A stretch of 64,000 nucleotides of DNA from an uncultured Dehalococcoidales bacterium (GCA_964419575.1 CAYQQD010000001.1:7403-71402); one strand, 5' to 3'; positions 13,218 to 57,508 are shown, counted from the first letter of the stretch. Translations and numbers: made by a program. The notes: generated by a model not told the origin, from the letters alone.

Positions 13218-13226
13218 AGGCTTACC

Positions 13227-13664: not shown

Positions 13665-13707
13665 TTTCTATACCCGTTATCTTAATTCCCCAGCGCTTAT
13701 CACTGTC

Positions 13708-16743: not shown

Positions 16744-16757
16744 CTCTGTTTGACCGC

Positions 16758-17519: not shown

Positions 17520-17527
17520 TTTCCCCT

Positions 17528-24650: not shown

Positions 24651-25091
24651 ATGAAGCTCTCTACCAGAGGACGATATGGAACCAGGATGCTCTTGGATTT
24701 GGCTCTCCAACACGATAGACCGGTTGCACTAAAAGATATAGCTCAAAGGCAGCAGATTTCACTACCGTACCTAGAGCGGCTAATAGCTCCTCTCATAGCC
24801 GGAGGCATAATACGGAGCGCTCGTGGCGTAAGGGGTGGCGTTTGGCTAGCCCAGCCTCCTGAGCAGATAAAGCTGAGCACAGTCATTCAACTTCTTGAGG
24901 GTTCAGTTGCTCCGGTAGAGTGTGTTAATGATCCAGCGATATGCTCCCGCTCCGAATTATGTGTCACCCGGGACATCTGGACTAAGATCAAAAGGGCGAT
25001 AAACGAGGTCTTGGAGTCTACGACCTTGCAGGATTTGGTCGAGGAGCAAAAGAGAAAAGAACGACATGAACAGGTGACATACTACATATAG
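24651..25091 (+). CDS. Rrf2-family transcriptional regulator (IscR-like, likely cluster-ligating)
   Basis: 146 aa. 'MKLSTRGRYGTRMLLDLA' wHTH, with three Cys in 'CVNDPAICSRSELC'. Confidence 0.85.
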   Translation: MKLSTRGRYGTRMLLDLALQHDRPVALKDIAQRQQISLPYLERLIAPLIAGGIIRSARGVRGGVWLAQPPEQIKLSTVIQLLEGSVAPVECVNDPAICSRSELCVTRDIWTKIKRAINEVLESTTLQDLVEEQKRKERHEQVTYYI

Positions 25092-25142
25092 GTTTACTAG
25101 ATTAATAGCTCGGATGGAGTATGTAGAGGGGGAATAACTTCT

Positions 25143-26153
25143 ATGATTGAGAGGTATTCAAGGCAGACCCTTTTTGAGGGTATAGGTCAAGGAGGGCAAA
25201 GGAAACTAGGCAATAGTTGTGTGGCGATAATTGGCTGCGGTGCCTTGGGAACAATTATTGCTACTTCGCTAGTGCGTGCCGGTGTGGGTAAGGTCAGGAT
25301 TATAGACCGAGATTTTATAGAATACCACAATCTGCAGCGGCAAGTCCTTTTTGACGAAGATGATATACGGAATGGGCTGCCGAAGGCAATAGCCGCCGAG
25401 CGGCATCTAAGGAAGGTAAACTCCTCGGTCGAAATTGAAGGCATAGTCGCCGATGTGAACTTTACCAACGTTGAAAGGTTCATCACTGGCGCAGACCTAA
25501 TCCTGGATGGATTGGACAATTTTGAAACTCGTTTTCTTATTAATGATGTCTCGCTAAAGCATGGAATCCCGTGGGTCTATGGTGGAGCTATCTCTTCTTC
25601 TGGAATGACGATGAACATAATCCCGGGCGAAACTCCTTGCTTCCGGTGCTTCTGCTCTACCGCACCAGCTGCAGGAGTAATGCCTACTTGCGATACCGCC
25701 GGGGTAATCGGTCCTGTCCCTTTCATTATCGGTTCTCTTCAAGCCGCTGAGGCACTGAAGATACTGGTTGGAGCTAAAGAAATTAATCGGCGGCTTATAT
25801 GTATTGATGTTTGGACAGGGAGCTTTGAAAAGCTTGAAATAACTCCTTACCACGATTGCCCCGCCTGCTTGGGAAGATACGAGTTTCTGGAGGGAAAATT
25901 TGGAGTAAGAACCACTTCACTTTGTGGTCAAAATGCGGTGCAGGTGCTAAATCCCGAGATAGAAAGGCTCTCTTTCAAGGAGCTTGAAAGTCGGCTTAAG
26001 GTGGTGGGGGAGGTTACCTATAACGAGTTCATGCTACTTTTCAGGGTTGATGGTCGAGAAATGGTTATCTTTCCTGACGGAAGGGCTATCGTTAAAAACA
26101 CCAATGACGAGTCACTAGCACGGGGGCTCTATGCCAAATACATTGGAACATGA
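25143..26153 (+). CDS. ThiF/MoeB/HesA-type E1-like adenylyltransferase with a ~90-aa C-terminal extension
   Basis: 336 aa. 'IIGCGALGT' loop, 'YSRQ' start and two CxxC pairs ('CFRCF', 'CPAC'). The tail is unassigned. Confidence 0.8.
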   Translation: MIERYSRQTLFEGIGQGGQRKLGNSCVAIIGCGALGTIIATSLVRAGVGKVRIIDRDFIEYHNLQRQVLFDEDDIRNGLPKAIAAERHLRKVNSSVEIEGIVADVNFTNVERFITGADLILDGLDNFETRFLINDVSLKHGIPWVYGGAISSSGMTMNIIPGETPCFRCFCSTAPAAGVMPTCDTAGVIGPVPFIIGSLQAAEALKILVGAKEINRRLICIDVWTGSFEKLEITPYHDCPACLGRYEFLEGKFGVRTTSLCGQNAVQVLNPEIERLSFKELESRLKVVGEVTYNEFMLLFRVDGREMVIFPDGRAIVKNTNDESLARGLYAKYIGT

Positions 26154-27357
26154 GAGTAATACCGTGATTTACCTAGATAATGCGGCGACATCCTGGCCCA
26201 AGCCAGAAAGTGTCTACCAGACCATGGATGAGTTCTTGAGGACAAAAGGCGGTAATCCTGGTCGTGGTAGCCACAGTATGGCTGTGGCGGCCAGAGAGAC
26301 AGTTGAAGAAACGCGGCTGCTTGTGGCGCGCCTTATTAGTGCCCCAGAAATGGAGCGAGTCATATTTACTCTGAATTGCACCGATGCCTTGAACCTGGGG
26401 CTAAAAGGACTGCTTAAGCCAGGGGACCACGTAATCACCAGTTGTATCGAGCACAATTCTGTGGTTCGCCCTCTTAGAAAGCTCGAACAGCAAGGGGTCA
26501 AAGTAAGTAGATTACCGCCTTCCCCGAAGACTGGAGCTGTGTCTGCCCTGGATATTGAGGAAGCGATAACTAGAGACACCAGACTGGTAGTGGTTACTCA
26601 TGCCTCTAACGTAACCGGGGTCATTCAACCCGTTGAGGAATACGGAGTAGTTGCTAGGGAGTATAACCTAATTTTCATGGTAGATGCGGCGCAAACTGCT
26701 GGTAAGTATCCTATTGATGTCCAAGCGGGTAACATTGATTTACTCGCCTTTTCCGGGCATAAAGGACTACTAGGCCCTCCAGGCACTGGGGTGCTTTATG
26801 TGGGCAACCGGGTTGACCTTGATTCATTGCGTGAGGGTGGCACCGGCTCATATTCGGAACTGGAGGAGCAGCCAGCCACTCTGCCTGATAGGTATGAAAG
26901 TGGGACAGTGAATAGTGTCGGCATTAGCGGGCTTGGCGCTGGACTGAAATATATCTTCAGCCAAGGTTTGACGAGGATTCGTACTCATGAGCGATGCTTG
27001 ATAGACAAGCTAGTCGAGGGTTTATCTAACATACCTAGATTAATTCTTTATCGGGCTAAAGATGGGTTTAATCAAGCACCTGTGGTCTCCTTTAACATCG
27101 AGGGATATGAGCCAGGGGAGGTAGAAGCCATTCTGGACCAAGCATTTGATATCAAGGTGAGGGCAGGGCTTCATTGTGCCCCAGCAGCTCACAAGACCTT
27201 AGGTACTTATCCATTAGGTACCGTACGTTTAAGTCCCGGATACTTCAATACTGTGGAAGAGATTGCTCTGACGCTTCAGGCCTTGGGGAAAATTGCAAGG
27301 ATGAAGCCTGTCAAGGATTTACCGGAAAGCAGAAGAGCAGTTTACAACAGGTTATGA
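26131..27357 (+). CDS. class-V aminotransferase-fold cysteine desulfurase family protein
   Basis: 408 aa. 'YLDNAATSWP' and PLP-Lys region 'FSGHKGLLGPPGTG'. The start is uncertain (an alternative GTG lies near 26164). Confidence 0.75.
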   Translation: MPNTLEHESNTVIYLDNAATSWPKPESVYQTMDEFLRTKGGNPGRGSHSMAVAARETVEETRLLVARLISAPEMERVIFTLNCTDALNLGLKGLLKPGDHVITSCIEHNSVVRPLRKLEQQGVKVSRLPPSPKTGAVSALDIEEAITRDTRLVVVTHASNVTGVIQPVEEYGVVAREYNLIFMVDAAQTAGKYPIDVQAGNIDLLAFSGHKGLLGPPGTGVLYVGNRVDLDSLREGGTGSYSELEEQPATLPDRYESGTVNSVGISGLGAGLKYIFSQGLTRIRTHERCLIDKLVEGLSNIPRLILYRAKDGFNQAPVVSFNIEGYEPGEVEAILDQAFDIKVRAGLHCAPAAHKTLGTYPLGTVRLSPGYFNTVEEIALTLQALGKIARMKPVKDLPESRRAVYNRL

Positions 27358-27381
27358 GATTAACATAAGGAGGAAATTGAG

Positions 27382-28371
27382 GTGGCAGAGATAATCCAAG
27401 AAGTGGAGAAGCTTCAGTATAAGACTATAGAAATACCTAAGCTAACTAGAGGTATAGCCAGGGACTCTACCGAGCTAATCGGAAACACACCCTTGGTCAG
27501 ATTGAACCGAATAACCCAAGGGTTAAAGGCAGGGGTGGTGGCAAAGCTTGAGTCTTTTAATCCTGTAGGCAGTGTGAAAGACAGGATTGGAGTGTCAATG
27601 ATTGTTGATGCTGAAGAGAGGGGGCTCATTAATAAAGACACGGTTATCGTCGAGCCCACCAGCGGCAATACAGGCATTGCCCTAGCCTTTGTTTGTGCCG
27701 CCAGAGGATATAAGCTTGTCCTCACCATGCCTGACACCATGTCCATGGAGCGTAGACAACTCCTAGCCATATTTGGCGCTGAGCTGGTGCTAACTCCCGG
27801 GGCAGAGGGGATGCCAGGAGCGGTCAGGAAAGCCGAGCAGCTGGTGGCTGAAAACCCGAATTACTTTATGCCCCAGCAGTTTAAAAACCCGGCAAACCCA
27901 GAGGTACACCGACTGACCACAGCCGAGGAGATCTGGCGAGATACTGAGGGGAAAGTGGATATTGTAGTCGCAGGGGTAGGAACTGGAGGGACGATTACCG
28001 GAGTAGCTGAGGTAATCAAACCTAAGAGACCACAATTTAAAGCTATTGCCGTTGAGCCTGCTGATTCCCCGGTTCTTTCTGGAGGAAAGCCAGGAGCCCA
28101 TAAGATTCAGGGCATCGGGGCTGGTTTTATCCCTGATATCTTAAGATTAGATTTAATTGATGAAATTATCGAGGTGACCAATGAAGATGCCGGAATAATG
28201 GCCAGGAGGTTAGCCAAAGAGGAAGGGATATTGGCTGGCATATCCTCGGGAGCAGCAACTTGGGCAGCATTAGAGGTAGCCAAAAGGCAGGAAAACGAGG
28301 GCAAGCTCATAGTGGTAATTCTACCCGACACTGGTGAGCGCTACCTATCTACCTGGCTCTTTCAAGAATAA
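27382..28371 (+). CDS. cysK: cysteine synthase A (O-acetylserine sulfhydrylase)
   Basis: 329 aa. '[11 protein letters not shown]' PLP-Lys motif and 'GTGGTITG'. AGGAGG lies 8 nt before the GTG. Confidence 0.9.
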
Positions 28372-28399
28372 AGAAGTTCAATAAAAAGGTGGGTTTATT

Positions 28400-29116
28400 A
28401 TGTTTAAGACTTTAAGGGAAGATATTCAAACGGTATTTGCTAAGGACCCGGCGGCAAGAAGTGTGCGGGAGGTAATATTCTGTTATCCAGGGCTACGTGC
28501 CTTATGGTATCATCGTGTGGCTCATTTCCTCTGGCGCCACAGGCTTAAATTTCTAGCTCGCTTCTGCTCCCATACTAACCGCTTTCTAACCGGTATCGAA
28601 ATCCACCCCGGAGCCAAAATCGGTCGACGCTTCTTTATAGACCACGGGGCAGGGGTAGTGATCGGAGAGACAGCAGAAATAGGAGACGATGTTCTGATAT
28701 ATCAGGGAGTTGTCTTGGGTGGGACTAGTTTAAAGAAGGAGAAGCGCCATCCCACTGTTGGCAATAATGTGGTAATTGGAACCGGCGCAATAGCTCTGGG
28801 TGCTATCACTATAGGGGATGGAGCTAAGATTGGGGCGGGTTCAGTGGTAATAAAATCCGTTCCACCTGGAGCCACAGTTGTCGGAGTTCCAGGAAGGATT
28901 GTCGAGGAACGCCACAAGCCACTTGCAGACTTAGAGCACGGGGAGTTGCCTGACCCGATAGCAGAAGCTATAAGGCTTGTCCTAGAGGAGCAGGGAAGGT
29001 TAGGAGAGCGCGTGAAAAGGCTGGAGAGTCTGAGTGGTATCGTAGTCCCCGATGATGAAGTGAGGAAGATAAGGAAGGAAACTATAAAGGGCTTCAGCGG
29101 AGGAGGGGGAATATGA
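28400..29116 (+). CDS. cysE: serine O-acetyltransferase
   Basis: 238 aa. '[30 protein letters not shown]' followed by hexapeptide repeats. Confidence 0.9.
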
Positions 29117-30255
29117 GATTTGAAACAATAGCCATTCATGCTGGAGGGAGGCCGGATGCGACATTTGGTGCCGTCTCAGTGCCCATCTACCAGACATCGA
29201 CCTTTGTCTTTGAAGATGTGGGTAAGACAAGAGGCTATGACTATTCACGCACGGCGAATCCGACAAGAAAGGTTCTAGAAGATACCATTGCCCAACTCGA
29301 GGGTGGAAAGGCAGGGTTTGCCTTTGCCACCGGTATGGCTGCCGAAGCCACGGTTATGCACCTGCTTGAGGCTGGTGATCACGTAATTTCGGGGGATGAT
29401 GTCTACGGGGGAACTTATAGACTTTTTCAGAATGTAATGAGGGCCTTTGGGCTGGAGTTCACCTTCTTGAGGATGGATAGTAGGCAAGCGATTGAGGAAG
29501 CGATAAGGCCTAATACTAGGATGCTGTGGCTAGAGAGCCCATCTAATCCATTACTGAATATTATTGATGTAGAAATGGTGGCTGATGTTGCCAAAAAGCA
29601 CGGCATATTGACAGTGATGGATAATACTTTTGCCACCCCCTATTTCCTGAGACCAATTGACTTTGGGATTGATCTTGTTGTTCACTCTACAACCAAGTAT
29701 CTCAACGGACACTGTGATGTTGTTGGGGGTGCTGTGGTAACCACCACTGATGAATTAACCGAGAGGGTTCAATTTCTCCTTAATGCCATGGGAACCTGCG
29801 CCTCTCCCTTCGATTGCTGGCTGGTGCTTCGGGGAATTGAGACTCTCCCGGTAAGAATGAAGCAGCATGAGGCGAACGCAATCGCCGTAGCTAATTATCT
29901 CAGAGAGCACCTTCCAGTAAATAGGGTGTTCTACCCTGGGCTTGAGTCTCATCCAGGACATGAAATCGCCAAGAGGCAGATGAAGGGGTTCGGTGGGGTG
30001 GTGTCGTTTGAATTAAAAGGGGGGATTCAGGCAGCTAACAACTTTCTGAGAAGAATCAAGGTCTTTTCCCTGGCAGAATCGCTTGGTGGTGTTGCTTCCC
30101 TTGCTGAGCACCCAGCTACCATGACTCACGCTTCGATGCCAAAGGATTACCGGGAAAAAGTAGGAATCACTGATGAACTAATCAGGTTGTCGGTTGGGTT
30201 GGAAAATGTTGATGATTTAATTGAGGATTTACACCAAGCGCTGGAGGTTAGCTGA
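29113..30255 (+). CDS. Cys/Met-metabolism PLP enzyme (cystathionine gamma-synthase / beta-lyase / gamma-lyase family)
   Basis: 380 aa. '[16 protein letters not shown]' PLP-Lys motif. ATGA overlap with cysE. Confidence 0.85.
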
Positions 30256-30267
30256 AGGAGTGGAGTA

Positions 30268-31491
30268 GTGTCATACGCTAGAGCTTTACGTTGTCGAAAA
30301 TGCGGGCAGGAATATCCTTTGCAGCCTCTCAACCTGTGCGACTTCTGCCTTAGCCCGTTGGAGGTCAGCTATGACTATAAGTCTATGGCTAAAGCCGTAA
30401 GTCGGGAGAAACTCAGCGGAGGAACGCTGAGCATGTGGCGCTATCGCGATATGCTGCCAGTGGAGGGCAAGGAAGTGGACATTGGTACCGGCTTTACCCC
30501 TCTAGTCAAAGCCGATAACCTTGGGCATGAACTGGGGCTAAACCGCCTCTATATTAAGAATGACTGCCTTAATCCAACATACTCCTTCAAGGACAGGGTA
30601 GTCTCAGTTGCCGTTACCAAGGCGCGCGAATTCGGGTTTGACACCATAGCCTGTGCCTCAACGGGCAACCTAGCGGCTAGCGTAGCCGCCCATGCCGCCA
30701 AGGCGAATATGAAAGCTTATGTTTTCGTCCCCTCTGAGGTAGAACCGGGTAAGCTGGTAGGAGCAGCAATCTATAACCCAGTTCTGGTGACCGTTAAAGG
30801 AAGCTATGACGATGTCAACCGTCTCTGCGCCCGGCTGGTGGAAAGATATAACTGGGGTTTCATCAACATTAATCTCCGACCCTACTATGCTGAGGGGAGT
30901 AAGACCTTGGGCTATGAGGTGGCTGAGCAATTAGGGTGGCGTGCCCCTGACTGTGTGGTGGCTCCCGCCGCCTCGGGGCTGCTCTTTACCCGAATATGGA
31001 AAGGCCTAGACGAGCTAGCTATGCTTGGCTTAATCGAAGCAGTTAATACCCATATGTATCTCGCTCAGGCTACTGGCTGCTCGCCCATAGTTAACGCCTT
31101 TCAGGCGGGCTCTCTCCATGTGCACCCGGTAGAGCCAGACACTATTGCCAAGTCCATAGCCATCGGGAACCCGGCTGATGGTTATTATGCGTTGAGGGTT
31201 GCCAGGCAGTCAGGGGGTGGTGCTTGCGCTGTCACCGATGAGGAAGCAATTGCCGGGATGAAGCTACTGGCTCAAACTGAGGGTATCTTTGCTGAAGCAG
31301 CGGGTGGAGTAGTTATTGCCGGGCTCAAGAGGCTGGCAACTTCGGGGGTGATTAAAAGGAACGAGCTTACCGTGGCTTTCATCACTGGGGCAGGACCCAA
31401 GACACAGGAAATAGTGTCCGGCATCGTTCAGCCCTTTGCTGTCCAGCCCAACCTGGAATCATTTGAGGAGGTGCTCGGTGCGCGAGCTTAA
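30268..31491 (+). CDS. threonine-synthase-family PLP enzyme with N-terminal zinc ribbon
   Basis: 407 aa. 'CRKCG...CDFC' ribbon, 'YSFKDRV' PLP-Lys and 'CASTGN'. Confidence 0.8.
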   Translation: MSYARALRCRKCGQEYPLQPLNLCDFCLSPLEVSYDYKSMAKAVSREKLSGGTLSMWRYRDMLPVEGKEVDIGTGFTPLVKADNLGHELGLNRLYIKNDCLNPTYSFKDRVVSVAVTKAREFGFDTIACASTGNLAASVAAHAAKANMKAYVFVPSEVEPGKLVGAAIYNPVLVTVKGSYDDVNRLCARLVERYNWGFININLRPYYAEGSKTLGYEVAEQLGWRAPDCVVAPAASGLLFTRIWKGLDELAMLGLIEAVNTHMYLAQATGCSPIVNAFQAGSLHVHPVEPDTIAKSIAIGNPADGYYALRVARQSGGGACAVTDEEAIAGMKLLAQTEGIFAEAAGGVVIAGLKRLATSGVIKRNELTVAFITGAGPKTQEIVSGIVQPFAVQPNLESFEEVLGARA

Positions 31492-31547
31492 GCCTGTCAC
31501 ACTCCCCACGTTCAATATTAATCCCAAGAAAAATAAAGGGGGCTAAG

Positions 31548-31790
31548 ATGGTCAAGAGACGAGTAATGTTTACCTTTCCCCAGGAGCTTATTAAGGAGCC
31601 CATCATTTATACTCTCAGCCACCAGTTCAAGGTAGTGACCAATATTCGCCGCGCTGATATATCTGAGGATAAAGGGTGGGTGGTATTGGAGCTAGAGGGG
31701 GATGAGAAGGAAATCGAGCAGGGGATTGCCTGGGTAACTGCCAAAGGGGTGAGGGTCGATCCTGTTATTGGAGATATTGTGGAGGGTTAA
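31548..31790 (+). CDS. stand-alone NIL-domain protein
   Basis: 80 aa. 'VVTNIRRADISEDKGWVVLELEG...' matches my memory of the NIL domain layout. Confidence 0.6.
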   Translation: MVKRRVMFTFPQELIKEPIIYTLSHQFKVVTNIRRADISEDKGWVVLELEGDEKEIEQGIAWVTAKGVRVDPVIGDIVEG

Positions 31791-31793
31791 GCG

Positions 31794-32960
31794 GTGAGAA
31801 GGATATATCTTGATTATGCTGCCACGACGCCGACGCATCCCGAGGTGGTGAAGACGATGCTGCCCTATTTTACCGATGCCTTTGGTAACCCTTCAACCAT
31901 CTATTCCTACGGTCAGGAGGCAAAGGGAGCTATTGAGGAGGCAAGGAGTAAGGTTGCCGACCTTATTGGCGCCCAGAGCGAAGAGATTGTCTTTACCAGC
32001 GGGGGGACAGAGGCAGATAACTTTGCCTTAGAGGGTGTGGCTTTCGCCAAAGAGCCCAAAGGGAACCACATCATTACTAACTCCATTGAGCACCACGCAG
32101 TCATAGAGACGTGTAAGTTCTTGGAGAGAAGAGGGTTCAGAGTAACCTACCTGCCGGTAGATGAGTATGGCTTGGTTGACCCTGGCGATGTCAAAAGGGC
32201 TATCATTGATAAGACCATCCTCATTTCGGTAATGCAGGCTAACAATGAAGTAGGCACCATTGAGCCGATAGCTGAGATAGGTAGGATTACCAAGGAGGCC
32301 GGAATCTATTTTCATACCGACGCAGTACAAACCGTAGGGCACATCCCAGTAAATGTGAATGAACTTGGGGTGGATTTACTGTCTATGTCGGCACACAAGC
32401 TCTATGGTCCTAAGGGGGTTGGAGCATTATATGTTAGAAAAGGGACAAAACTGATTCCCTTTATGCATGGAGGTGAGCAGGAGAGAAGGCGACGAGCAAG
32501 TACTGAGAACGTCCCTGGGCTTGTCGGCTTTGGCAAAGCTGCCGAACTTGCCCAGCAGGAAATGACCGAGGAAGCAGAGCGGTTGACTTATCTTCGTGAC
32601 CAGCTTATTGAGGGTCTTCTAGAGCGGATTGACCACATTCGCTTAAATGGTCATCCCATAAAGAGGCTACCCAACAACGTCAATATAAGTGTTGATTATG
32701 TAGAAGGGGAGTCAATGCTTCTAAATCTTGACTTGGAGGGCATTTGTGCTTCTACCGGCTCAGCTTGTAGCTCATCAAGCCTTGAGCCATCCCATGTGCT
32801 CCTGGCACTGGGCCTCTCCCCTGAGCAAGCGCATGGTTCCTTAAGGTTTAGTCTAGGGAGGTGGACGACTGAAGAGGAGATAGGTCGAGTCCTGGAGGTT
32901 CTGCCCAAGATTGTATCTAAGCTCAGAGATATGTCACCGCTTTTGAAAAGCCATAGATAG
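31794..32960 (+). CDS. nifS: cysteine desulfurase NifS/IscS-type
   Basis: 388 aa. '[15 protein letters not shown]' PLP-Lys and catalytic loop 'STGSACSS'. Confidence 0.9.
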
Positions 32961-32971
32961 GAGAGGAAAAG

Positions 32972-33379
32972 ATGCGTGATGTATGGTCGCTATACAGTGA
33001 TAAGGTGATGGAACATTTCAAAAACCCCAGGAATGTAGGAGAGATAGAGAATCCCGATGGCGTCGGACACGTGGGCAACCCGGTGTGCGGCGATATCATG
33101 GAGCTTTACATCAAGGTAAATGATAGCACCATCGTTGATGCCAAATTCAAGACTTTTGGCTGTGGAGCTGCCATCGCCACCAGCTCTATGGTCACCGAGA
33201 TGGTAAAAGGGAAGAGTATAAGCGAGGCGCTGGAAATCTCCAATCGGGCAGTGGCTGAAGCGTTAGACGGGCTGCCACCATTCAAGATGCACTGCTCAGT
33301 TCTAGCTGAGGAGGCACTAAAATCAGCTATTGAGGACTACCTCGCTAAGAGCTGTCCAACTAAGGTAGCTCAAACATAA
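32972..33379 (+). CDS. iscU: Fe-S cluster scaffold IscU/NifU N-terminal type
   Basis: 135 aa. Three scaffold Cys in 'GNPVCGD', 'FGCGAAIA' and 'MHCSVLA'. Confidence 0.9.
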   Translation: MRDVWSLYSDKVMEHFKNPRNVGEIENPDGVGHVGNPVCGDIMELYIKVNDSTIVDAKFKTFGCGAAIATSSMVTEMVKGKSISEALEISNRAVAEALDGLPPFKMHCSVLAEEALKSAIEDYLAKSCPTKVAQT

Positions 33380-33394
33380 AAGGGAGGTGCTAAA

Positions 33395-34177
33395 GTGGCA
33401 CAAAAGTTCAGTCCAGCGGGAGAAAAGGATATAAGTAGTGCTATAGTCGCTGAGTTTGCCGCTCAGTTTCAAGAATATGTAGAGAGCGACTGTATTATCG
33501 TCGGTGGTGGTCCAAGTGGACTCATGGCAGGTAGGAATTTGGCAAGAGCGGGCAAGAGGGTTCTTATTGTCGAACGGAATAACTATATTGGGGGTGGCTT
33601 CTGGATTGGGGGGTTCCTGATGAACACGGTAACCGTAAGACATCCGGGAGAGAGGATTTTAGATGAGCTCGGTATTCCGTACAAGGCGGTTAATAAGAAT
33701 CTGTGGGGGGCGAACGGTCCGCATGCCTGTTCAAAGCTTATTGCTTCAACCTGCGATGCCGGCGTTAAATTCCTCAATATGGCAAACTTCGACGACCTAG
33801 TATTAAGAGGAGATAATCGTGTTGCCGGAGTTGTGGTTAACTGGACACCTGTCTCAGCATTACCAAGAGAGATAACCTGCGTTGACCCCATTGCCTTGGA
33901 GTCGAGAGTGGTTATCGACGCTACTGGTCATGATGCTCAGGTAGTGAGGAAATTGGAGGAGAGGGGGCTAATCAAAACCAAGGGTTATGGTGCTATGTGG
34001 GTAGAGAGGTCGGAAGACCTAGTCGTTGAGCATACAGGAGAGGTTCACCCGGGGTTGATTGTCACCGGCATGGCGGTATCAACAACCTACGGATTGCCTC
34101 GGATGGGCCCAACTTTTGGGGCTATGCTCTTATCGGGGGAAGTGGCGGCTGAGATTGCCCTAGAGAGTTTGAGATGA
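33395..34177 (+). CDS. thi4: Thi4-type thiazole synthase, His variant (non-suicidal type)
   Basis: 260 aa. '[13 protein letters not shown]' and '[11 protein letters not shown]', with His at the position of the yeast sulfur-donor Cys. Confidence 0.85.
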
Positions 34178-34974
34178 AAGTTCGCCGAATAGAGAAGGTC
34201 CTCTTGTACGATGAAGGTGCGGCTGAAGAATTAAATACAGAGGAAATCGCCAAATATTTGAAAGAGAAGCTAGGGAAAGCACAAGTCAAGGTGAGAGGGA
34301 ATCCCTTTGCTCTTTGGCTTGAGAAAAGCTCAGATTATGCAAGAAAGCTTGCATCTATCAAGATTCAAGATGTGAATAGACAGATAGCCCCTGAGCAGGA
34401 ACCTCTCTATGGCGAGGTTTCGTATGAAGAAAGAAGAATTCTGGGAAAAACCAAGTCCTTTGGAGTGCTCTACGACGGTTTTCAACTTCAAAGGGTCTTT
34501 TCAGAACTCATAGCACGGGAGGAGTGCTCTCTTGAGGTTGTTCACATCTTCTTTACCAACCGTTTGTTTGCTACCTGGGAGGAGAATAACAACCGGTACC
34601 ATGCCAGGACAAGCATGTATGGTATCCCCTCGGTTATCTCAACTACAGGGCTGGTAGAGGCACCGGCCAAGCCAAGGGAGTATTACCTTCTTAAGCAGCA
34701 GTATGAGATGCTAGGAAAGGACCTGTTGGAACTCAAAGAGAGATTGAAGGGAAGTTTTATTGATTACGGGGATGAACGACTGACCGAGGTTATAAAGGGA
34801 TATGCAATGCAGGCGGTTTTCTATCATCTTGTTGGTGACCCTTTTTGCGAGGATAAGGGTTGTCGGCTATATAACGCCCACTGGCAAGAGGAACTCATCT
34901 TTGCCCAGCTTGAGAGCGAATACGAGTTTTGTGAACGCCATACCAGAATCTTAGATAATTTACGTAGGAAATGA
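34174..34974 (+). CDS. hypothetical protein. The C-terminal Cys/His motif resembles a degenerate archaemetzincin-like zinc site.
   Basis: 266 aa. '[20 protein letters not shown]...FCERH'. ATGA overlaps link it to both thi4 and the ThiS-like gene. Confidence 0.6.
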
Positions 34975-35165
34975 AAATGAGCATTCCGGAAATAGAGGTT
35001 AAAGAGGATAAGACAATAAAGGAGCTTATGGATGAGCTCCAGCTCTCTACTGCTCCCATCCTGCTGATGGTGGATGGGAGAATTTTCTACCCAGATGTGA
35101 TAAAGGGCAGAAGGTTAAGGAAAGAGGATAAAGTAACATTAATCCCACTGATAGCGGGGGGATGA
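34971..35165 (+). CDS. ThiS/MoaD-like sulfur-carrier protein ending in Gly-Gly
   Basis: 64 aa. '...EDKVTLIPLIAGG' followed by the stop, and a beta-grasp-like pattern 'TIKELMDEL...LLMVDGRIF'. Confidence 0.75.
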   Translation: MKMSIPEIEVKEDKTIKELMDELQLSTAPILLMVDGRIFYPDVIKGRRLRKEDKVTLIPLIAGG

Positions 35166-35208: not shown

Positions 35209-36402
35209 ATGAAGCTATATCAGATGGTCGTAAAAGACATTATACGCCGCAAAAGGCGGGTGTTATTTGCCATCATCGGTGTAATTATCGGCACTATGAC
35301 GGTCGTTGGCATATTTACCATTGCCCGCGCTGGTGAAGCAAGAATGTATGAGCAGCTGGAAAAATATGGCCCTAACTTAACCGTCATACCAGCCATAACT
35401 AACGTTGATGTGAATTTAGGTGGCGACCTGAGTCTTGGGACTTTGTCAGTCGGCGAAAACTGCATCCCCGAGGAAAAATTGCCTGAGATCAGAAGGATAA
35501 CCGATAACGCAATAAGGGAGGCGCTGGGCATTGAAGATGAGGGCAATATTGCCATCATTGCCCCCAAACTCTACGTGAATACCGAGGTGAAAGGGGTATC
35601 GGTGATGGTAGTTGGGGTGGAGCCTCAAGAGGAGAGCAAGATTAAGACATGGTGGAGAATTCGGGAGGGGGAATATCTTGAGCGTGCCGACCAGGCGCTG
35701 ATCGGAGCGGTAGCTGCTGAACTTCTGGAGCTTAGCGAAGGTGATACCATTGCTCTTAACGGCACCGATGTAACCATTACCGGTATTCTCGAGGAGACAG
35801 GTTCCAACGAAGATTACCAGATTTTTGTTCCCCTAGCCACATTGCAGAGGGCGTTTAACAAAGAGGGGCTGATTTCTTCAATGGATATTCGTGCCCTGTG
35901 CAATGCATGCCCGGTGGTAATGATCGCTGACAGTATAAATAGTGAGATTCCCGGGGTTCGGGCAATTGCGGTAAAACAAATAGCTAGCGCTGAAATGGAG
36001 ATGCTGGGGAGAATAAACAGGTTTATGCTGGCTCTGGCCGGAATTACACTGGCTGTTGGCTTGTTTGGGGTAGGCAACACGATGATGCGGTCGGTAAATG
36101 AAAGGATCAAAGACATCGGGATAATGAGAGCAGTAGGGGCGTCACACAATCAGATAATGAGGGTCTTTCTTTACGAGGCTATTATTATTGGTGTATTGGG
36201 GGGTATCTTCGGGTATTGGGCAGGAACCTTGCTGGCATTTGGGCTTGGCCCGGTGCTCTTTCAGATATCAGCCATTAGTTACGTACCCCAGTACTTCCCC
36301 CTAGCACTGGGCTTAGCTATCTCTGTTGCCGTCATAGCCACCATATATCCAGCCTTTCGCGCCACCAGGGTTAAGGTGGCTGATTCCTTTAGGTCTTTGT
36401 GA
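35209..36402 (+). CDS. FtsX/MacB-type ABC transporter permease
   Basis: One N-terminal TM, a ~230-aa extracytoplasmic domain and three C-terminal TMs. GGAGG lies 7 nt before the ATG at 35209. Confidence 0.85.
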   Translation: MKLYQMVVKDIIRRKRRVLFAIIGVIIGTMTVVGIFTIARAGEARMYEQLEKYGPNLTVIPAITNVDVNLGGDLSLGTLSVGENCIPEEKLPEIRRITDNAIREALGIEDEGNIAIIAPKLYVNTEVKGVSVMVVGVEPQEESKIKTWWRIREGEYLERADQALIGAVAAELLELSEGDTIALNGTDVTITGILEETGSNEDYQIFVPLATLQRAFNKEGLISSMDIRALCNACPVVMIADSINSEIPGVRAIAVKQIASAEMEMLGRINRFMLALAGITLAVGLFGVGNTMMRSVNERIKDIGIMRAVGASHNQIMRVFLYEAIIIGVLGGIFGYWAGTLLAFGLGPVLFQISAISYVPQYFPLALGLAISVAVIATIYPAFRATRVKVADSFRSL

Positions 36403-36413
36403 GGTGGGACAAG

Positions 36414-37097
36414 ATGTTAGAAATCAAGAATGTAACCAAGATTTACGGCGAGGGTGAAACTAAAGTAGTTGCCCTTAATAATGTTTCGCTTCGGGTAGAA
36501 AAAGGCGACTTTATAGCTGTTATGGGGCCTTCTGGAAGCGGTAAGTCCACCCTTTTGAATGTCATCGGTGGTCTGGACCGCCTGTCCAGCGGTGAAGTGC
36601 TCCTGGAGGGGAAGCGTATCGATAACCTAGATGAAAATGCTCTTGTTGAGATTAGAAGGGGGAAAATCGCCTACGTTTTTCAGCAGTATCATCTGATTCC
36701 ATCCCTTACTGCCTTGGAGAATGTGCTCCTGCCTTTAATCTTTGCTGAGACAAGTGGGAAGGCTGAGAGGGCACTGAATATTTTGAAAAGGGTGGGCTTA
36801 GAAAAAAGGGCGAAACATAAACCCAGCCAGTTAAGTGGTGGGGAACAACAGAGGGTAGCCATTGCTAGAGCTCTGGTTAATAACCCGTTACTTGTCCTGG
36901 CTGATGAGCCAACAGGTAATATGGACCAAGAAACGGGTCAGAAAATCTTGCATTTATTCGACCAGCTAAATAGAGAGGGGCACAGCATTATTATGGTTAC
37001 CCATAACCCTGAGATAGCCAAATATGCTGGAGAAATTATAGTCCTGCGTGATGGGCAAGTTATAGATAGGATTAATCAAAGAGGAGGAAACCAATAA
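36414..37097 (+). CDS. ABC transporter ATP-binding protein (MacB/LolD-type)
   Basis: '[12 protein letters not shown]', Walker A 'GPSGSGKST', '[15 protein letters not shown]', 'LADEPTGN'. GAGGTG lies 7 nt before the ATG at 36414. Confidence 0.9.
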
Positions 37098-37655
37098 ATG
37101 TTAAAGAGAATCATTGCCTGGTTTATGTTATTACCGCTGGTTGTGATGTTGCTTCTAGGCGCTTGTGCTGGCCCAACGTCAACACCAGCACCGGAGTCGA
37201 CTCCAACACCAGCGCCGACACTGGAACCGACACTACCACCAGCACCAATGCTGACATTGGAACCACCAGCACCGGCAGCCTTCCAGATTACCGATTTAGA
37301 AATCAATCCGACAGTGGCTAGCCCTGGACAGAGGGTAACTATCAGCGCTAAGTTGACAAATACTGGTGACACTGGGGATAGCTACACAATGGAACTGTTT
37401 ATAAATGATGTTGCTGAGGTAGCAGAGGTAGCAAAGGAAGTAACTATACCTTCTGGTCAAACCAGGGAGTTGCGTTTCTCAGAGTTTTTCAAGACACCGG
37501 GTACTTATCGAGTTAACTTGGGTGAGCTTATCGGACAATTTGTGATAGTTGAGTCAGGCGAGCTAACACAATCAAGTACCCCCGGCTGCTGCTCCGGTGC
37601 GCCTGATTCCAGTACCTCGGATAGTTCTAGTTGCAGGTGTTGTTCACGCCGTTAG
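37098..37655 (+). CDS. lipoprotein with a Pro/Thr-rich linker, a CARDB-like Ig domain and a Cys-rich C-terminal tail
   Basis: 185 aa. Lipobox 'LLGAC'. 'ASPGQRVTISAKLTNTGDTGDSYTMELFIND' is CARDB-like. The tail reads 'PGCCSGAPDSSTSDSSSCRCCSRR'. Confidence 0.7.
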   Translation: MLKRIIAWFMLLPLVVMLLLGACAGPTSTPAPESTPTPAPTLEPTLPPAPMLTLEPPAPAAFQITDLEINPTVASPGQRVTISAKLTNTGDTGDSYTMELFINDVAEVAEVAKEVTIPSGQTRELRFSEFFKTPGTYRVNLGELIGQFVIVESGELTQSSTPGCCSGAPDSSTSDSSSCRCCSRR

Positions 37656-37727
37656 GAGTTATTCGAGCTTTTCTCCCACTGTGCCTGCTTCCACTACTCT
37701 ATTTACACACAAAGGAGGATACAATAG

Positions 37728-38303
37728 ATGTTAAGAAAAATAGGAATAGGAGCCTTGGTAGTTTCGCTAGTATTAATCCTTGCCGGGTGTGCTGGCTCAC
37801 CACCAGCATCGGCACCTACTCCGCCGCCGGCACCAGTACCTACGTCACCGCCATCACCAGCCCCTACTCCGCCACCAAGTCCAAAGCCATCGGGGCCAAT
37901 AGAGGCGACATGGATTGAGCCACAACTAGATGGCGATACTGTGTCCATCCCAGTAAGTGAGATTGAGGACAATTGGAATACCCACTTTAAGCTGAGGACA
38001 AGGGTTGATGATAAGAGTGTCAGGCTGAATTTCATGGCATACATACTTGATGGAGAAATCTACGTTCGGGCGAACGTTTGCCCCCCTTGTCGCTCGGTAG
38101 GCTATGCTCTTGAAAATGACATCCTAATATGCGATACGTGTGCGACTACCTTCAATGCCAAAACCGGCGACGGTATTGGGGGAGCCTGTGTTGATTATCC
38201 CAAGGCAGTCGTGCCATATGAAATCACTAATAACCAATTAGTAATGAATGGAGCCGACCTAATAACTGCCTACGAGGACACCCTTAACCCCGGCTGGCCC
38301 TAA
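37728..38303 (+). CDS. lipoprotein with a Pro-rich linker and a Cys4 domain (DUF2318-like)
   Basis: 191 aa. Lipobox 'LAGC', and 'VCPPCRSVGY...ICDTCATTF' with two CxxC pairs. Confidence 0.65.
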   Translation: MLRKIGIGALVVSLVLILAGCAGSPPASAPTPPPAPVPTSPPSPAPTPPPSPKPSGPIEATWIEPQLDGDTVSIPVSEIEDNWNTHFKLRTRVDDKSVRLNFMAYILDGEIYVRANVCPPCRSVGYALENDILICDTCATTFNAKTGDGIGGACVDYPKAVVPYEITNNQLVMNGADLITAYEDTLNPGWP

Positions 38304-38320: not shown

Positions 38321-40357
38321 TTGTCAGTGCAAAGAGGCTTTTATTTTGACCAGACTAGATGTATCGGGTGCTTCACCTGTTGTGTAGCCTGTAAGGATTG
38401 GCATGATATACCTGCCGGGCCAGCCCACTGGCGGAGGGTAGCCCCGTTTGAAGACAGTAAATTTCCTCGGCCTTTCCTGGCCTACCTTTCCGCTGCCTGC
38501 TACCATTGTGAGAACCCTCTCTGCGCCGTAGTTTGTCCTGCCGAAGCGATAACCAGAAGGGAAGACGGCATAGTCGTAGTGGACAGGGAAAAGTGTCAGG
38601 AGAGCGCTCGTTGTGGTATTACCCTCACCAATGGCAGTGGCCAGATAAATGTGTCTGCCTGTGAGGTAACCTGTCCCGCTCATGTTGATGTACCAGGCTA
38701 CATCGCTCTAATTAGTAAAGGTAAGTTTAAGGAAGCGCTAGACTTAATGCGAGAGAAACTACCTTTACCTGGCGTTTTGGGCAGGGTGTGCTCTCACCCT
38801 TGTGAAAGTGAGTGCAAAAGGGGTGAAGTTGATAAACCTCTGGCTATCAGAGACCTCAAGCGATTCGCCTATGATGCGGTAGCTGATGAAAAGCCTGTCC
38901 CTCTGCCTAGGACAAAAGAGCAAAGTGTAGCCATTATCGGCTCAGGGCCAGCAGGACTTTCTGTAGCCTACGACCTGATAAGAAAAGGCTATAAGGTTAC
39001 AATCTTTGAAGCACTTCCTGTCATAGGGGGCATGGTGGTGGTGGGTATTCCTCGTTACCGACTGCCCACAGAGGTCTTGAACCGGGACATTGAGTACCTT
39101 AAAGGTCTGGGGATAGAAATTAAGGCCAATACACCTATTGGTAAGGAGACGACTTTGGATGACCTATCCCGCCAAGGTTACGACGCCATCTTCATCGCAG
39201 TGGGGGCTCATAATGGGCGTAAGCTCCCTATTCCTGGCGCTGAAGCTGATAATGTATTAGTGGGTACCTCATTCTTGCGCGATGTAAACCTGGGCAATAA
39301 CATCAAGCTGGGTCAGAGAGTGCTAGTGCTTGGTGGCGGTGGTATAGCCATTGATTGTGCTCGTGTTGCTCTTCGCCTAGGTGCGCAAAAAGTAGAAGCT
39401 GCCTGCCTGGAGTCCCGGGAGCAGATGCCAGCCTTAGACTCTGATATCGCTGAAGCTGAGAGGGAAGGGATAATCATTCACCCCTCGCGTACCTTTAAAC
39501 AAGTTGTGTGTCAGGATGGATGTGCTACTGGAGTAGAGTGCCTTAAATTGCGCTGGATGGAGTTTGATAAGGATGGGAAGCTGCACATAGACCCCATCGA
39601 AGGGTCAGAGCATGTCTTATCTGCAGATACGATTATATTCGCCATTGGTCAATCTCCAGACCTCGATACCCTCTTGGCAGGCACTGACATCGAGGTAACC
39701 AAACGCGGCACCATCGCTGTGGACCCTGAAACTCTACAAACCAGCCGCCCTGGAGTTTTTGCTGGGGGAGACGCAGTTACAGGAACGGCTTGGGTTATCG
39801 ACGCTATTGCCGCTGGGCAAAGGGCGGCATTTTACATTGACCACTATCTAAGGGGGGAAGTCCTGGGGAAGGGTTACATAGATATTCTCATAAAGGCCTC
39901 AGATATTAAAGTTGAGATACCGACTGACCTAGTTAAAGAACCGCGGCAGGAGATGCCGACTCTTGCCGTAGAGCAAAGGGAGGACAATTTTGGTGAGATT
40001 GCACTGGGATACGATGGGGAGAAAGCCATCACCGAAGCCAAGAGGTGCATGAACTGTGCCGGCAGGCTCTGCCTTAGGGTGTGTCCTTATGCTGCCCCTC
40101 AGTTTGGGGCTGAAAATAGAGCTAAAATGGAGAAATGTGACTTTTGTGTGGACAGGCTGGAAGAGGGCAAAAACCCCATCTGTGTAGATGCCTGTATTAT
40201 GCGAGCCTTAGACTGGGGCTCGATGGAAAGCCTAAAGGCAAAATATGGAGATATTCAAGAGGCTATCGGTTTTGCGTATTCATCAAGCGCCAAGCCTTCC
40301 ATCATATTTAAGCCGAAACGTCTGCCAGACAAAGCAGCTTCATCGGAGGGAAAATGA
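38321..40357 (+). CDS. DmsB-like four-cluster ferredoxin interrupted by a GltD-like NAD(P)H:FAD oxidoreductase module
   Basis: 678 aa. The N-terminus has 'FYFDQTRCIGCFTCCVACKDW' and 'CYHCENPLCAVVCP'. Residues ~93-575 carry 'GRVCSHPCESECKR' and 'AIIGSGPAGLSVAYDL'. The C-terminus has 'CMNCAGRLCLRVCPYAAPQF' and 'CDFCVDRLEEGKNPICVDAC'. Confidence 0.8.
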   Translation: MSVQRGFYFDQTRCIGCFTCCVACKDWHDIPAGPAHWRRVAPFEDSKFPRPFLAYLSAACYHCENPLCAVVCPAEAITRREDGIVVVDREKCQESARCGITLTNGSGQINVSACEVTCPAHVDVPGYIALISKGKFKEALDLMREKLPLPGVLGRVCSHPCESECKRGEVDKPLAIRDLKRFAYDAVADEKPVPLPRTKEQSVAIIGSGPAGLSVAYDLIRKGYKVTIFEALPVIGGMVVVGIPRYRLPTEVLNRDIEYLKGLGIEIKANTPIGKETTLDDLSRQGYDAIFIAVGAHNGRKLPIPGAEADNVLVGTSFLRDVNLGNNIKLGQRVLVLGGGGIAIDCARVALRLGAQKVEAACLESREQMPALDSDIAEAEREGIIIHPSRTFKQVVCQDGCATGVECLKLRWMEFDKDGKLHIDPIEGSEHVLSADTIIFAIGQSPDLDTLLAGTDIEVTKRGTIAVDPETLQTSRPGVFAGGDAVTGTAWVIDAIAAGQRAAFYIDHYLRGEVLGKGYIDILIKASDIKVEIPTDLVKEPRQEMPTLAVEQREDNFGEIALGYDGEKAITEAKRCMNCAGRLCLRVCPYAAPQFGAENRAKMEKCDFCVDRLEEGKNPICVDACIMRALDWGSMESLKAKYGDIQEAIGFAYSSSAKPSIIFKPKRLPDKAASSEGK

Positions 40358-42627: not shown

Positions 42628-42648
42628 TAAAGGGTGCGACATTTACAA

Positions 42649-43122
42649 ATGAGCAAGATAATTGCAGTCTGTAAGAGCAAGAAAAAAGGTACTAGGAAGA
42701 AACCTGTAGCCAAAGGTGTCATCAAAGAAGGTTACGGTCTTGTCGGTGATGCTCACGCCGATTGCTGTACTCATCGTCAGGTAAGCCTGCTGGCAACTGA
42801 AAGTATTGACAAAATGCGCAAGTTAGGCGTGGATGTAGGCCCTGGAGATTTTGCTGAAAATCTCACTACCGAAGGAATAGACTTGCTCTCGTTACCGATT
42901 GGCACACATATATTTGTAGGAGGAGAGATTGTCTTAGAAATTACCCAGATTGGTAAAGACTGCCATACTACCGGATGTGCTATTTACCGTCAAATGGGCA
43001 AATGCATTATGCCCAAAGAGGGAGTATTTACCAAGGTAATCAAGGGAGGACTGGTTAAAGTGGGGGACGCGATAAGAGTCTGGGAGAAGGCAACAATCAA
43101 CAAAAGAGGAAAGGAAGGTTAA
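42649..43122 (+). CDS. MOSC domain protein
   Basis: 'GLVGDAHAD...HRQVSLL...GDFAENLTTEGIDL...' MOSC layout. The ATG at 42649 is preferred over the GTG at 42634. Confidence 0.75.
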   Translation: MSKIIAVCKSKKKGTRKKPVAKGVIKEGYGLVGDAHADCCTHRQVSLLATESIDKMRKLGVDVGPGDFAENLTTEGIDLLSLPIGTHIFVGGEIVLEITQIGKDCHTTGCAIYRQMGKCIMPKEGVFTKVIKGGLVKVGDAIRVWEKATINKRGKEG

Positions 43123-57422: not shown

Positions 57423-57508
57423 TTGCTAAGTGTCCCCCCTTAGGAATAGTCTTAAGACAAGAAACCCCAGTCCATATAGCACTGGGGATCAGAGTAAGCT
57501 CAACCCGC

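Follow-up and report, generated by a model that had tools for sequence, protein, structure and literature searches.

How anaerobes obtain iron and other thiophilic metals that are locked up by sulfide is an open question, and a small group of genes in an uncultured Dehalococcoidales bacterium raises it in a concrete form: what would an ATP-driven membrane motor do when it is encoded together with two cysteine-rich surface lipoproteins, next to genes of sulfur and iron-sulfur (Fe-S) metabolism? The genes lie at positions 35,209 to 38,303, on the plus strand, of a 64,000-nucleotide stretch of DNA (GCA_964419575.1, CAYQQD010000001.1:7403-71402), which we refer to as the window. They are four in number and closely packed, and encode a permease and an ATPase of the ATP-binding cassette (ABC) class, followed by two lipoproteins, here called lipoprotein A and lipoprotein B; all four open reading frames (ORFs) were found where an earlier, sequence-only reading of the window had placed them. 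That reading had proposed a system for capture or delivery of a metal. In this study we compared the cassette across related genomes, and on sequence grounds it is best read as one four-gene machine, a putative minimal relative of the Campylobacter FetA-FetBCD module that is independent of P19 and Ftr1, and a candidate for the uptake of metal (or sulfur) by anaerobes of sulfidic habitats.

ABC complexes of the MacB family (type VII) do not carry a substrate through their own membrane, but pass ATP-driven motion on to an ectodomain (PMC5985334). Such mechanotransmission has been established for MacB, LolCDE and FtsEX, with the activation of EnvC by FtsEX, and YbbAP-TesA, as examples (PMC5985334, PMC7668044, PMC12646458). 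In Campylobacter jejuni, deletion of fetA, fetB, fetC or fetD leads to iron-dependent growth impairment, and while the Fet system is known genetically, the mechanism of FetA and FetBCD is not (PMC10783030). The DUF2318 domain of C. jejuni FetA carries the motif CxxC-x13-CxxC-x14/15-C, and according to Liu et al. genes for such domains are "almost always" found in clusters with homologs of FetMP (PMC6083913). Methanogens have been grown on pyrite-derived FeS species, with no uptake machinery identified (PMC8630215, PMC8516115, PMC10846266). The module described here is a conserved candidate in the right organisms.

Results

Conservation and composition of the module

One genome from each GTDB species was scanned with a pattern based on the lipoprotein B alignment, and the scan yielded 55 loci, about 48 of them in metagenome-assembled genomes of Dehalococcoidia/Chloroflexota and five in Methanosarcinaceae, including Methanococcoides vulcani; the loci were annotated using the window proteins as queries. 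The permease and ATPase genes are directly upstream of the gene for lipoprotein B in 41 of the 45 Dehalococcoidia and Methanosarcinaceae loci that have at least 2.5 kb of upstream sequence, and because this order recurs so regularly the cassette is not a chance arrangement. The same trio is found in all six Thermodesulfobacteriota contigs. Permease, ATPase and lipoprotein B are an obligate trio in Dehalococcoidia, Methanosarcinaceae and Thermodesulfobacteriota, and identical copies of the window's locus are present on 13 metagenome contigs. Archaeal and Dehalococcoidia module proteins are 36-50% identical, which suggests transfer of the module between domains.

Lipoprotein A, in contrast, is an optional accessory of the module, counted in 20 of 37 bacterial modules. 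Its orthologs have the same cassette position as in the window; broken down by form, 17 of the bacterial modules carry it with a cysteine-rich tail (type 1) and 6 in a second form (type 2), 16 are without it, and none of the archaeal modules has one. The sequence-only reading had noted that P19 and Ftr1 are absent, which was borne out by Pfam scans and precomputed Pfam matches for the whole 64-kb window, and had suggested that an immunoglobulin (Ig)-like lipoprotein with a thiol-rich tail takes their position instead, a view that does not fit a protein dispensed with by so many modules.

The Thermodesulfobacteriota version (delta-type) is a five-gene unit that encodes a Zn-ribbon/CcmH-like protein, a SurA_N-like protein, the DUF2318 protein, FtsX and the ABC ATPase, and its DUF2318 protein is signal-anchored and bears a cytoplasmic Zn ribbon. 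The additional proteins of this unit (L068, 4349-5943, and the equivalents in L070-L073) contain the conserved cysteine/glycine-rich motifs KCACGGCG...CxC (4/4) and ASCCxxGCGGG (5/5), so that such elements are also borne by scaffolds that have no relation to lipoprotein A. Further membrane-tethered proteins, with thioredoxin folds or with flexible stretches rich in CC/CGC, have joined the module independently in three lineages.

Cysteine sites on the motor and on both lipoproteins

Hydropathy of the permease indicates one transmembrane segment (residues 17-43), then some 225 residues of ectodomain and another three transmembrane segments within residues 270-386, and Pfam assigns MacB_PCD (73 bits) and FtsX (64 bits), both over threshold, which agrees with the topology that had been read from the sequence. 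Matches to LolCE, MacB and FtsX in NCBIfam are partial and all far under the equivalog cutoffs. The ATPase matches ABC_tran at 129 bits, with DarD, LolD and the MacB nucleotide-binding domain (NBD) as its best NCBIfam matches, and is called at 227 residues in the identical metagenome contigs. Permease and ATPase together thus show the four transmembrane segments, the big domain between the first and second of these, the MacB_PCD and FtsX matches and the cognate NBD that define type VII ABC complexes; the permease presumably acts as a homodimer.

A feature of the permease that the earlier reading had overlooked is a CxxC motif in the ectodomain (RALC-x-x-CP). It is present in 44 of 47 aligned permeases, i.e. 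in all 44 from Dehalococcoidia, Methanosarcinaceae and Thermodesulfobacteriota, and missing from the remaining three, the FetB-like and FetC-like permeases and an unrelated FtsX (FtsX2) of Fusobacterium, so that for Fet-type permeases its absence is a statement about a single locus (n = 1). With the motif conserved in 44 of 47 ectodomains, the motor bears a conserved extracytoplasmic dithiol.

Lipoprotein B (191 residues) has the lipobox LAGC (Cys21), no twin-arginine, and a 33-residue linker that is 91% Pro/Thr/Ala/Ser. The 'CPPC...CDTC' stretch reported for it is in the sequence, and a profile search confirmed the proposed DUF2318-like family: PF10080 (formerly DUF2318, 'FtrD-like') matches at 45.9 bits against a cutoff of 26.3. 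It had been described as a Cys4 domain; the alignment of 53 homologs corrects this number to five, with C118, C121, C135, C138 and C154 all invariant, in the spacing CxxC-x13-CxxC-x15-C that a FetA-like protein of Fusobacterium shares. There are at least 774 homologs. When the domain was compared by phmmer with 1.84 billion cluster representatives, only 223 clusters were hit at E<=1e-3, and since nearly all of these are 160-240 residues long the short form of DUF2318 is a family of its own.

An AlphaFold 2 model of the lipoprotein B domain, made from the 53-sequence alignment, has a predicted local distance difference test (pLDDT) score above 90, and in a Foldseek search of the PDB at least the top 20 matches were all Rieske-type ferredoxins (E down to 6e-5, template modelling score about 0.72 normalised to the target). 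The domain is thus predicted to have a Rieske-ferredoxin fold. In a weak alignment to a Rieske ferredoxin (E 0.23), C118, C135 and C138 fall on the ligand positions Cys, Cys and His, which would put the two cysteine-bearing loops at the site of the cluster ligands, a correspondence that is suggestive only. By sequence, neither the protein nor its family profile gave a significant match in the PDB, the best being that Rieske ferredoxin and the N-terminal domain of MerA (E 0.66), and no Pfam Rieske match was obtained. The domain further differs from Rieske proteins in that cysteine stands in place of both histidines of the CxH...CxxH ligand set, leaving candidate ligands that are all cysteine instead of Cys2His2, and in being lipid-anchored behind a Sec-type lipobox without RR, instead of following the Tat or cytoplasmic biogenesis expected of Rieske proteins. 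Since a twin-arginine is lacking from the family's signal peptides, lipoprotein B crosses the membrane unfolded, and the occupant of its cysteine site is therefore gained outside the cell.

Two variants of the domain were observed. Four proteins (P0007, P0012, P0013 and P0195) contain two tandem DUF2318 domains each. A metagenomic lipoprotein of 219 residues (P0212) has a degenerate DUF2318-like domain (CPNC...CHSC, the fifth cysteine gone) fused to an acidic spacer and the C-terminal ending ...PACCRR, the same ending as in lipoprotein A tails, and this fusion ties the CC tail and the cysteine domain together within one polypeptide.

In lipoprotein A, the signal peptide and lipobox LLGAC (Cys23) are followed by a 35-residue Pro/Thr/Ala linker (77% Pro/Thr/Ala/Ser), an Ig-like beta-sandwich (residues ~61-150), a disordered Ser-rich spacer and the cysteine-rich tail. 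The long linkers of both lipoproteins and the exact sequence of this tail, which ends CRCCSRR, are as previously reported. The CARDB domain named for it was supported in part: the PF07705 match stays at 20.2 bits (E 7e-4) against the Pfam threshold of 22.7, although one ortholog (P0125) has a precomputed match to this family, and the Ig-like fold is backed by the AlphaFold 2 model, a seven-strand Ig/fibronectin type III (FnIII)-like sandwich with pLDDT around 90 (tail below 50). Foldseek found generic FnIII/Ig-like domains only. Because the Ig domain has neither cysteine nor histidine, the tail is the chemically interesting part. In all 20 type-1 sequences listed, a CC doublet occurs at least once within the final 45 residues, and they usually carry two to three CC/CGC pairs, 10-17 residues apart, often ending in CC(G)R or CGCGG; the Ig domain of this form is conserved and the spacer variable. 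Type 2 (about 300 residues) has the same Ig domain fused to a Redoxin/AhpC-TSA thioredoxin-fold domain, with one cysteine where the active site usually lies and with FCGCC as a conserved motif, and one Dehalococcoidia cassette encodes an additional, free-standing redoxin lipoprotein. Homologs of lipoprotein A were found inside this cassette only, in a family that became visible by iterated hidden Markov model search within the fetched loci, a word-based homolog search having returned only 11 proteins.

Coordinates of the cassette, its cysteine sites and the adjoining sulfur/Fe-S genes are collected in Table 1. The permease ATG is seven bases past a GGAGG. Of the two zero-length gaps claimed before the lipoproteins, the first stands, as lipoprotein A starts at 37098 with the first base past the ATPase stop; the second does not, since 72 nucleotides separate the lipoprotein A stop from the lipoprotein B start, which is preceded by its own GGAGG. 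Promoter and terminator scans of 24.5-44.4 kb gave the same counts as shuffled sequences, and thus no information on operon structure. A 95-residue ORF at 37631-37918 (+) extends from the last part of lipoprotein A into the first part of lipoprotein B; as it is uncalled in the identical metagenome contigs, it is unlikely to be a gene.

Table 1. Features of the cassette and of the adjoining sulfur/Fe-S genes (positions in the window)
Feature	Position	Strand	Basis
Type VII (MacB/FtsX-family) ABC permease	35209..36402	+	Pfam, hydropathy, ribosome-binding site and ATG
Permease ectodomain CxxC (CNAC, within 'RALCNACP')	35899..35910	+	Alignment of 47 permeases
ABC ATPase (LolD/FtsE/MacB-NBD type)	36414..37097 (alternative GTG start 36399)	+	Pfam, NCBIfam
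Lipoprotein A	37098..37655	+	Sequence, AlphaFold 2, Foldseek, ortholog position
Cys-rich C-terminal tail of lipoprotein A, PGCCSGAPDSSTSDSSSCRCCSRR	37581..37652	+	5 Cys, two vicinal CC pairs
Lipoprotein B, DUF2318/PF10080 domain (residues 57-191)	37728..38303	+	Pfam, AlphaFold 2, Foldseek
Five-Cys signature of lipoprotein B, CPPC-x13-CDTC-x15-C (C118, C121, C135, C138, C154)	38079..38189	+	Alignment
Co-directional sulfur/Fe-S island upstream of cassette	24651..35165	+	Pfam, NCBIfam, Rrf2 sequence

Kinship with the Fet system

The association of DUF2318 and an FtsX/ATPase pair with the P19/Ftr1 (FetMP) iron system of C. jejuni, which the earlier reading had pointed out, is correct (PMC6083913, PMC10783030). 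Our sole Fet-type reference locus came from a plasmid collection, in which an unannotated Fusobacterium chromosome is filed as a plasmid; it encodes a FetA-like protein (428 residues, membrane-anchored, C-terminal PF10080), two FtsX permeases and an ATPase. Against this locus, the window permease scores 108 and 78 bits with the FetB-like and FetC-like proteins, compared with 53 bits for an unrelated FtsX from the same locus, and the window ATPase is 50% identical to the FetD-like protein (226 bits), compared with 38% (154 bits) for another ABC ATPase. Because these scores favor the FetB/C/D-like proteins and the DUF2318 domain is shared, the three core components of the module share specific ancestry with the Fet module.

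Likenesses to the complete Fet system (FetMP-FetABCDEF, cj1658-1665) thus extend from the DUF2318 domain, with its same five-cysteine spacing, to the class and sequence affinity of permease and ATPase, and the thioredoxin-fold lipoproteins of related Dehalococcoidia cassettes recall FetE/FetF, which are thioredoxins. Differences are also present. FetA is a polytopic protein of about eight transmembrane segments with periplasmic DUF2318 and YHS domains, whereas lipoprotein B is a small lipoprotein with no YHS; one permease gene stands here in place of the FetB/FetC pair; the ectodomain CxxC is missing from the single Fet-type example (n = 1); the window has no FetM/Ftr1, FetP/P19 or membrane-associated FetE/FetF thioredoxin; and the Ig-domain lipoprotein with its Cys-Cys tail is extra. 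Moreover, Fet belongs to a Fur-controlled iron operon and the module to a Cys/Met/Fe-S operon with Rrf2. Ftr1 and P19 were likewise not found among the recurrent neighbors in the sampled related loci, nor within 9 kb in Fusobacterium, and with both missing from the window and from the sampled loci, the rule of Liu et al. does not hold here.

Genomic context of the module

Most Dehalococcoidia loci show the module embedded in the order Rrf2, CysK, (CysE-like), MetY-like, [permease, ATPase, (lipoprotein A), lipoprotein B], PALP with Zn ribbon, NIL, NifS and NifU, and genes of this sulfur/Fe-S operon accompany it in 34 of 53 bacterial loci, so that the proximity to Fe-S and sulfur genes on which the sequence-only reading had drawn proved to be a conserved linkage. 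The window keeps the island (24.6-35.2 kb), which encodes Rrf2, ThiF, a NifS-like protein, CysK, CysE-like and MetY-like proteins, PALP with Zn ribbon, NIL, NifS, NifU, Thi4, DUF6775 and ThiS, with the cassette shifted to the end, past Thi4-DUF6775-ThiS, and in L008 the cassette lies between a NifS-like gene and CysK. Because the linkage survives rearrangement, it argues for a functional tie between module and sulfur island. The window Rrf2 (24651-25091) has a cysteine motif of the IscR type, C-x7-C-x5-C; orthologs occur in 20 other module loci, in most of these at the head of the operon, and Rrf2 abuts the module directly in L032 and L054 and is divergent from it in L019. At 30268-31790 (+) the window encodes a PALP enzyme that resembles threonine synthase and has a Zn ribbon at its N-terminus, together with an 80-residue NIL-domain protein that stands alone, and this PALP-NIL pair is conserved directly downstream of the module in most Dehalococcoidia loci.

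Other settings were also found. Dehalococcoidia modules outside the island most often have an OmpR-type two-component system upstream (4-5 of 13 loci), and this was the only recurrent neighbor when enrichment of Ftr1, P19, Feo and Fur was sought around such modules, none being found. Multihaem MtrC/MtrF-like and cytochrome c7-type proteins are encoded near three of these modules (among L037, L046, L047 and L058). In Methanosarcinaceae (L056, L057, L059 and L065) the trio diverges from genes for a winged-helix repressor of the BlaI type and a BlaR1-like membrane protease (M48/M56), and in one Thermodesulfobacteriota locus (L069) it adjoins a repressor and protease of the same types, neighbors that imply control by an extracytoplasmic signal; in L059 the trio is followed by a thioredoxin and a phosphoadenosine phosphosulfate (PAPS)-reductase-like protein. 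Thermodesulfobacteriota neighbors include NifU-NifS-TusA-DsrE, MetY/MetX/MetW and PALP, and also ArsR, HMA/YHS P-type ATPases, HtrA, DsbA/CcdA-like proteins, a cupredoxin and a PCYCGC protein. Among 58 loci, only 6 have molybdoenzyme genes in the vicinity of the module, as the window does, and these are often on the opposite strand; the clue that had been seen in this adjacency therefore lacks comparative support.

Discussion

A proposed thiolate relay worked by an ATP-driven motor

By analogy with the behavior of its family, the permease and ATPase would turn cytoplasmic ATP hydrolysis into movement of the ectodomain, beside which lipoproteins A and B would be tethered on their long flexible linkers. 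The lipoprotein A tail, the five-cysteine domain of lipoprotein B and the ectodomain CxxC could then form a chain of surface thiolate sites that captures a thiophilic cargo and hands it on by ligand exchange, with the ATP-driven motion enforcing capture, loading or release. We favor Fe(II) or small FeS species, for use in making Fe-S clusters, as this cargo, which would be taken across the membrane by a separate route not encoded in the cassette. We consider the general mechanism, a thiolate relay worked by ATP-driven movement, probable; for the full statement, in which iron is the most likely cargo, our estimate is a little lower, roughly 0.45. The chain of thiols is suggested by the cysteines of the ectodomain and of lipoprotein B, by the type-1 CC tails and the type-2 FCGCC motif, by the delta-type motifs and by the P0212 fusion, and iron is preferred because the Fet relatives have an iron phenotype and because the module is embedded among Rrf2, cysteine and NifSU genes.

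Known systems offer partial parallels. Type VII ABC complexes (MacAB-TolC, LolCDE, FtsEX-EnvC, YbbAP-TesA, HrtBA) share the topology of four transmembrane segments, the MacB_PCD and FtsX domains and the separate LolD/FtsE-like ATPase, and work via extracytoplasmic partner proteins; here, by contrast, the partners are cysteine-rich lipoproteins, the ectodomain has a CxxC, and there is no adaptor of the MacA/TolC type. To our knowledge, action on metal- or thiol-based partners has not been demonstrated for any type VII member. In SoxY, in the Mer relay for Hg(II) and in the Cys-Cys/Cys-Sec arms of MerA and large thioredoxin reductase, a flexible cysteine arm shuttles a ligand or redox equivalents, and the arm of SoxY sits on an Ig-like scaffold. 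Tails of lipoprotein A are longer than such arms, rich in Ser/Gly, and carry two to three cysteine pairs; no homology was detected, and the window tail does not end in the C-terminal GGCGG-COOH of SoxY. An ATP-driven metal hand-off is known from later structural work on NosDFY-NosL. This system, in which an ABC complex and a lipoprotein Cu chaperone work together on the outside of the membrane in the maturation of N2O reductase (PMC8457098), is a functional analogy only, since its folds (ABC-2 type permease, NosD beta-helix, NosL) are unrelated and its acceptor enzyme is known.

Several points weigh against an iron relay. With no Ftr1, P19, Feo or Fur seen in the sampled flanks, iron as the cargo is backed through guilt by association and by distant relatives. 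The contexts in other lineages (ArsR, HMA/YHS P-type ATPases and HtrA; BlaI/BlaR1-like; OmpR-type) point to soft-metal or envelope stress. Thiolates are better ligands for Cu(I), Zn, Cd, Ni and Co than for Fe(II), and the known roles of MacB-family systems are those of extruders, extractors or activators rather than of aids to uptake. The Rieske fold of lipoprotein B is a predicted structure, and nearly half of the modules do without lipoprotein A.

As a rival to the iron relay, the module could serve in defence against, or buffering of, soft metals, the surface thiols sequestering Cu(I), Zn, Cd, Hg or similar ions outside the membrane and the MacB-type motor expelling or shedding them, as HrtBA and MacB do with their substrates, with the cysteine-synthesis neighbors supplying thiol for metal tolerance. 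We hold this to be unlikely, although it has the preference of thiolates for soft metals on its side, together with the metal- and stress-related genes beside the Thermodesulfobacteriota modules (cupredoxin and PCYCGC genes among them), the BlaI/BlaR1-type sensors in Methanosarcinaceae and L069, and the two-component systems of Dehalococcoidia; outward direction is, moreover, the known function of the MacB family (PMC5985334), and C. jejuni FetA contains a YHS domain (PMC10783030). The lineage of the window, however, has the module in an anabolic operon under Rrf2, not a metal sensor, NifS/NifU/TusA are neighbors in a delta-type locus too, and Fet relatives aid growth in iron scarcity instead of conferring metal resistance (PMC10783030). 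A slightly smaller chance is given to sulfur as the cargo, in which case the cysteine tails and the five-cysteine domain would carry sulfane sulfur (persulfide/polysulfide) from S0, polysulfide or metal sulfides in a SoxY-like manner, and sulfide would be released at the membrane for CysK, MetY and NifS. The sulfide-fixing CysK and MetY, together with NifS, ThiS/ThiF/Thi4, TusA and DsrE, are indeed immediate neighbors, partners of the redoxin, DsbD and thioredoxin types could provide for the reduction of bound sulfur, and an Ig-like domain with a flexible C-terminal Cys/Gly arm, ending ...CGCGG in the L007 and L025 orthologs, recalls SoxY without implying homology; yet that ending is seen in a few orthologs and the window tail has another, Pfam and NCBIfam scans at E<=0.01 listed no SoxY family for lipoprotein A, a MacB-type complex in a sulfur relay would be without precedent, H2S passes membranes freely and module-bearing sulfate reducers live in excess sulfide, while the studied relatives have an iron phenotype (PMC10783030).

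The predicted fold of lipoprotein B also invites a redox interpretation, which we think improbable, in which a Rieske-fold domain with an all-cysteine [2Fe-2S] cluster or redox disulfides and the CC tails shuttle electrons at the surface, and the ABC complex gates or assembles them. The names of the family ('membrane iron-sulfur containing protein' in Pfam, 'Fe-S-containing protein' at NCBI), the redoxin, thioredoxin, DsbA and CcdA-like partners, the multihaem cytochromes near three Dehalococcoidia modules and the proposal that FetA to FetF bring reducing power to FetMP (PMC10783030) are all consistent with it. Against this, electron transfer needs no ATP-driven motor, the window cassette encodes no electron donor or acceptor, and a Sec-type lipobox implies unfolded crossing, with no extracytoplasmic route of Fe-S assembly known. 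Handling of molybdate/tungstate or thiomolybdate for the adjacent dimethyl sulfoxide (DMSO)-reductase-family enzyme, one of the options of the sequence-only reading and suggested by a GltD/DmsB fusion gene 17 nucleotides past lipoprotein B, then a gene of the DmsA family and MOSC, was rejected after comparison of the loci, given the 6 of 58 and the occurrence of the core module in three phyla without molybdoenzyme genes, and has very little probability left. Least credible of all is that the lipoproteins are S-layer or adhesin proteins that happen to lie beside an unrelated efflux pump, the outcome that the sequence-only reading had named as fatal to its own proposal. Ig folds of the CARDB type and Pro/Thr linkers are frequent in surface proteins, but lipoprotein B is fixed beside the permease and ATPase across three phyla, lipoprotein A homologs are confined to this cassette and the permease bears a co-conserved CxxC, so that the conserved linkage, held in dozens of genomes, contradicts it.

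The thiolate relay with iron as its likely cargo has a bolder variant, an ATP-powered 'thiol fishing line' with which strict anaerobes in sulfidic settings would harvest iron and sulfur together, as aqueous FeS clusters or from metal-sulfide minerals, the harvested FeS feeding cysteine and Fe-S cluster synthesis in Dehalococcoidia, Methanosarcinaceae and sulfate reducers. We regard it as a long shot; if true, the module would be a dedicated uptake front-end for the iron form that is present in euxinic environments.

The component families (type VII ABC, DUF2318, Ig-like domain) are already known. In the literature searched, in which DUF2318 is named in only five papers and PF10080, FtrD-like and COG4393 returned nothing relevant, several features nonetheless appear to be undescribed, i.e. 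the stand-alone lipoprotein form of DUF2318, the obligate pairing that Dehalococcoidia, methanogens and sulfate reducers show between DUF2318 and a CxxC-bearing FtsX permease, without FetMP, the Ig lipoproteins with Cys-Cys tails or a redoxin fusion, and the placement of the module inside an Rrf2-Cys/Met-NifSU operon; a paper on the Fe/S proteome of M. barkeri does not mention the module. With a soluble five-cysteine domain, one permease and no FetMP, it is the simplest version of the FetABCD of pathogens, and this simplicity makes the role of DUF2318 and its ABC partner directly testable. Should the relay prove true, metal/thiol trafficking would join the short list of tasks performed by type VII ABC mechanotransducers.

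Other genes of the window

Directly past the cassette, 38321-42627 (+) encodes first a 678-residue fusion protein, in which DmsB-like ferredoxin segments are joined to a GltD-like NAD(P)H/FAD module, and then a 757-residue DmsA-family molybdoenzyme, and the MOSC gene lies next to these at 42634-43122. The N-terminus of the molybdoenzyme (MSQNSYQTKTDEK...) has no twin-arginine signal, and by its sequence this is apparently a cytoplasmic, pyridine-nucleotide-linked member of the DMSO-reductase family. On the minus strand, at ~9160-20584, two HdrA-like FAD/polyferredoxin fusions of about 1010 residues, FlpD/MvhD-like proteins, a CCG-domain protein and more ferredoxins are encoded in a cluster that looks like an electron-bifurcating-type complex. 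A glycyl-radical enzyme (822 residues) and its radical S-adenosylmethionine activase are found at 56457-59977 (-), next to two dehydrogenases and an ABC uptake system.

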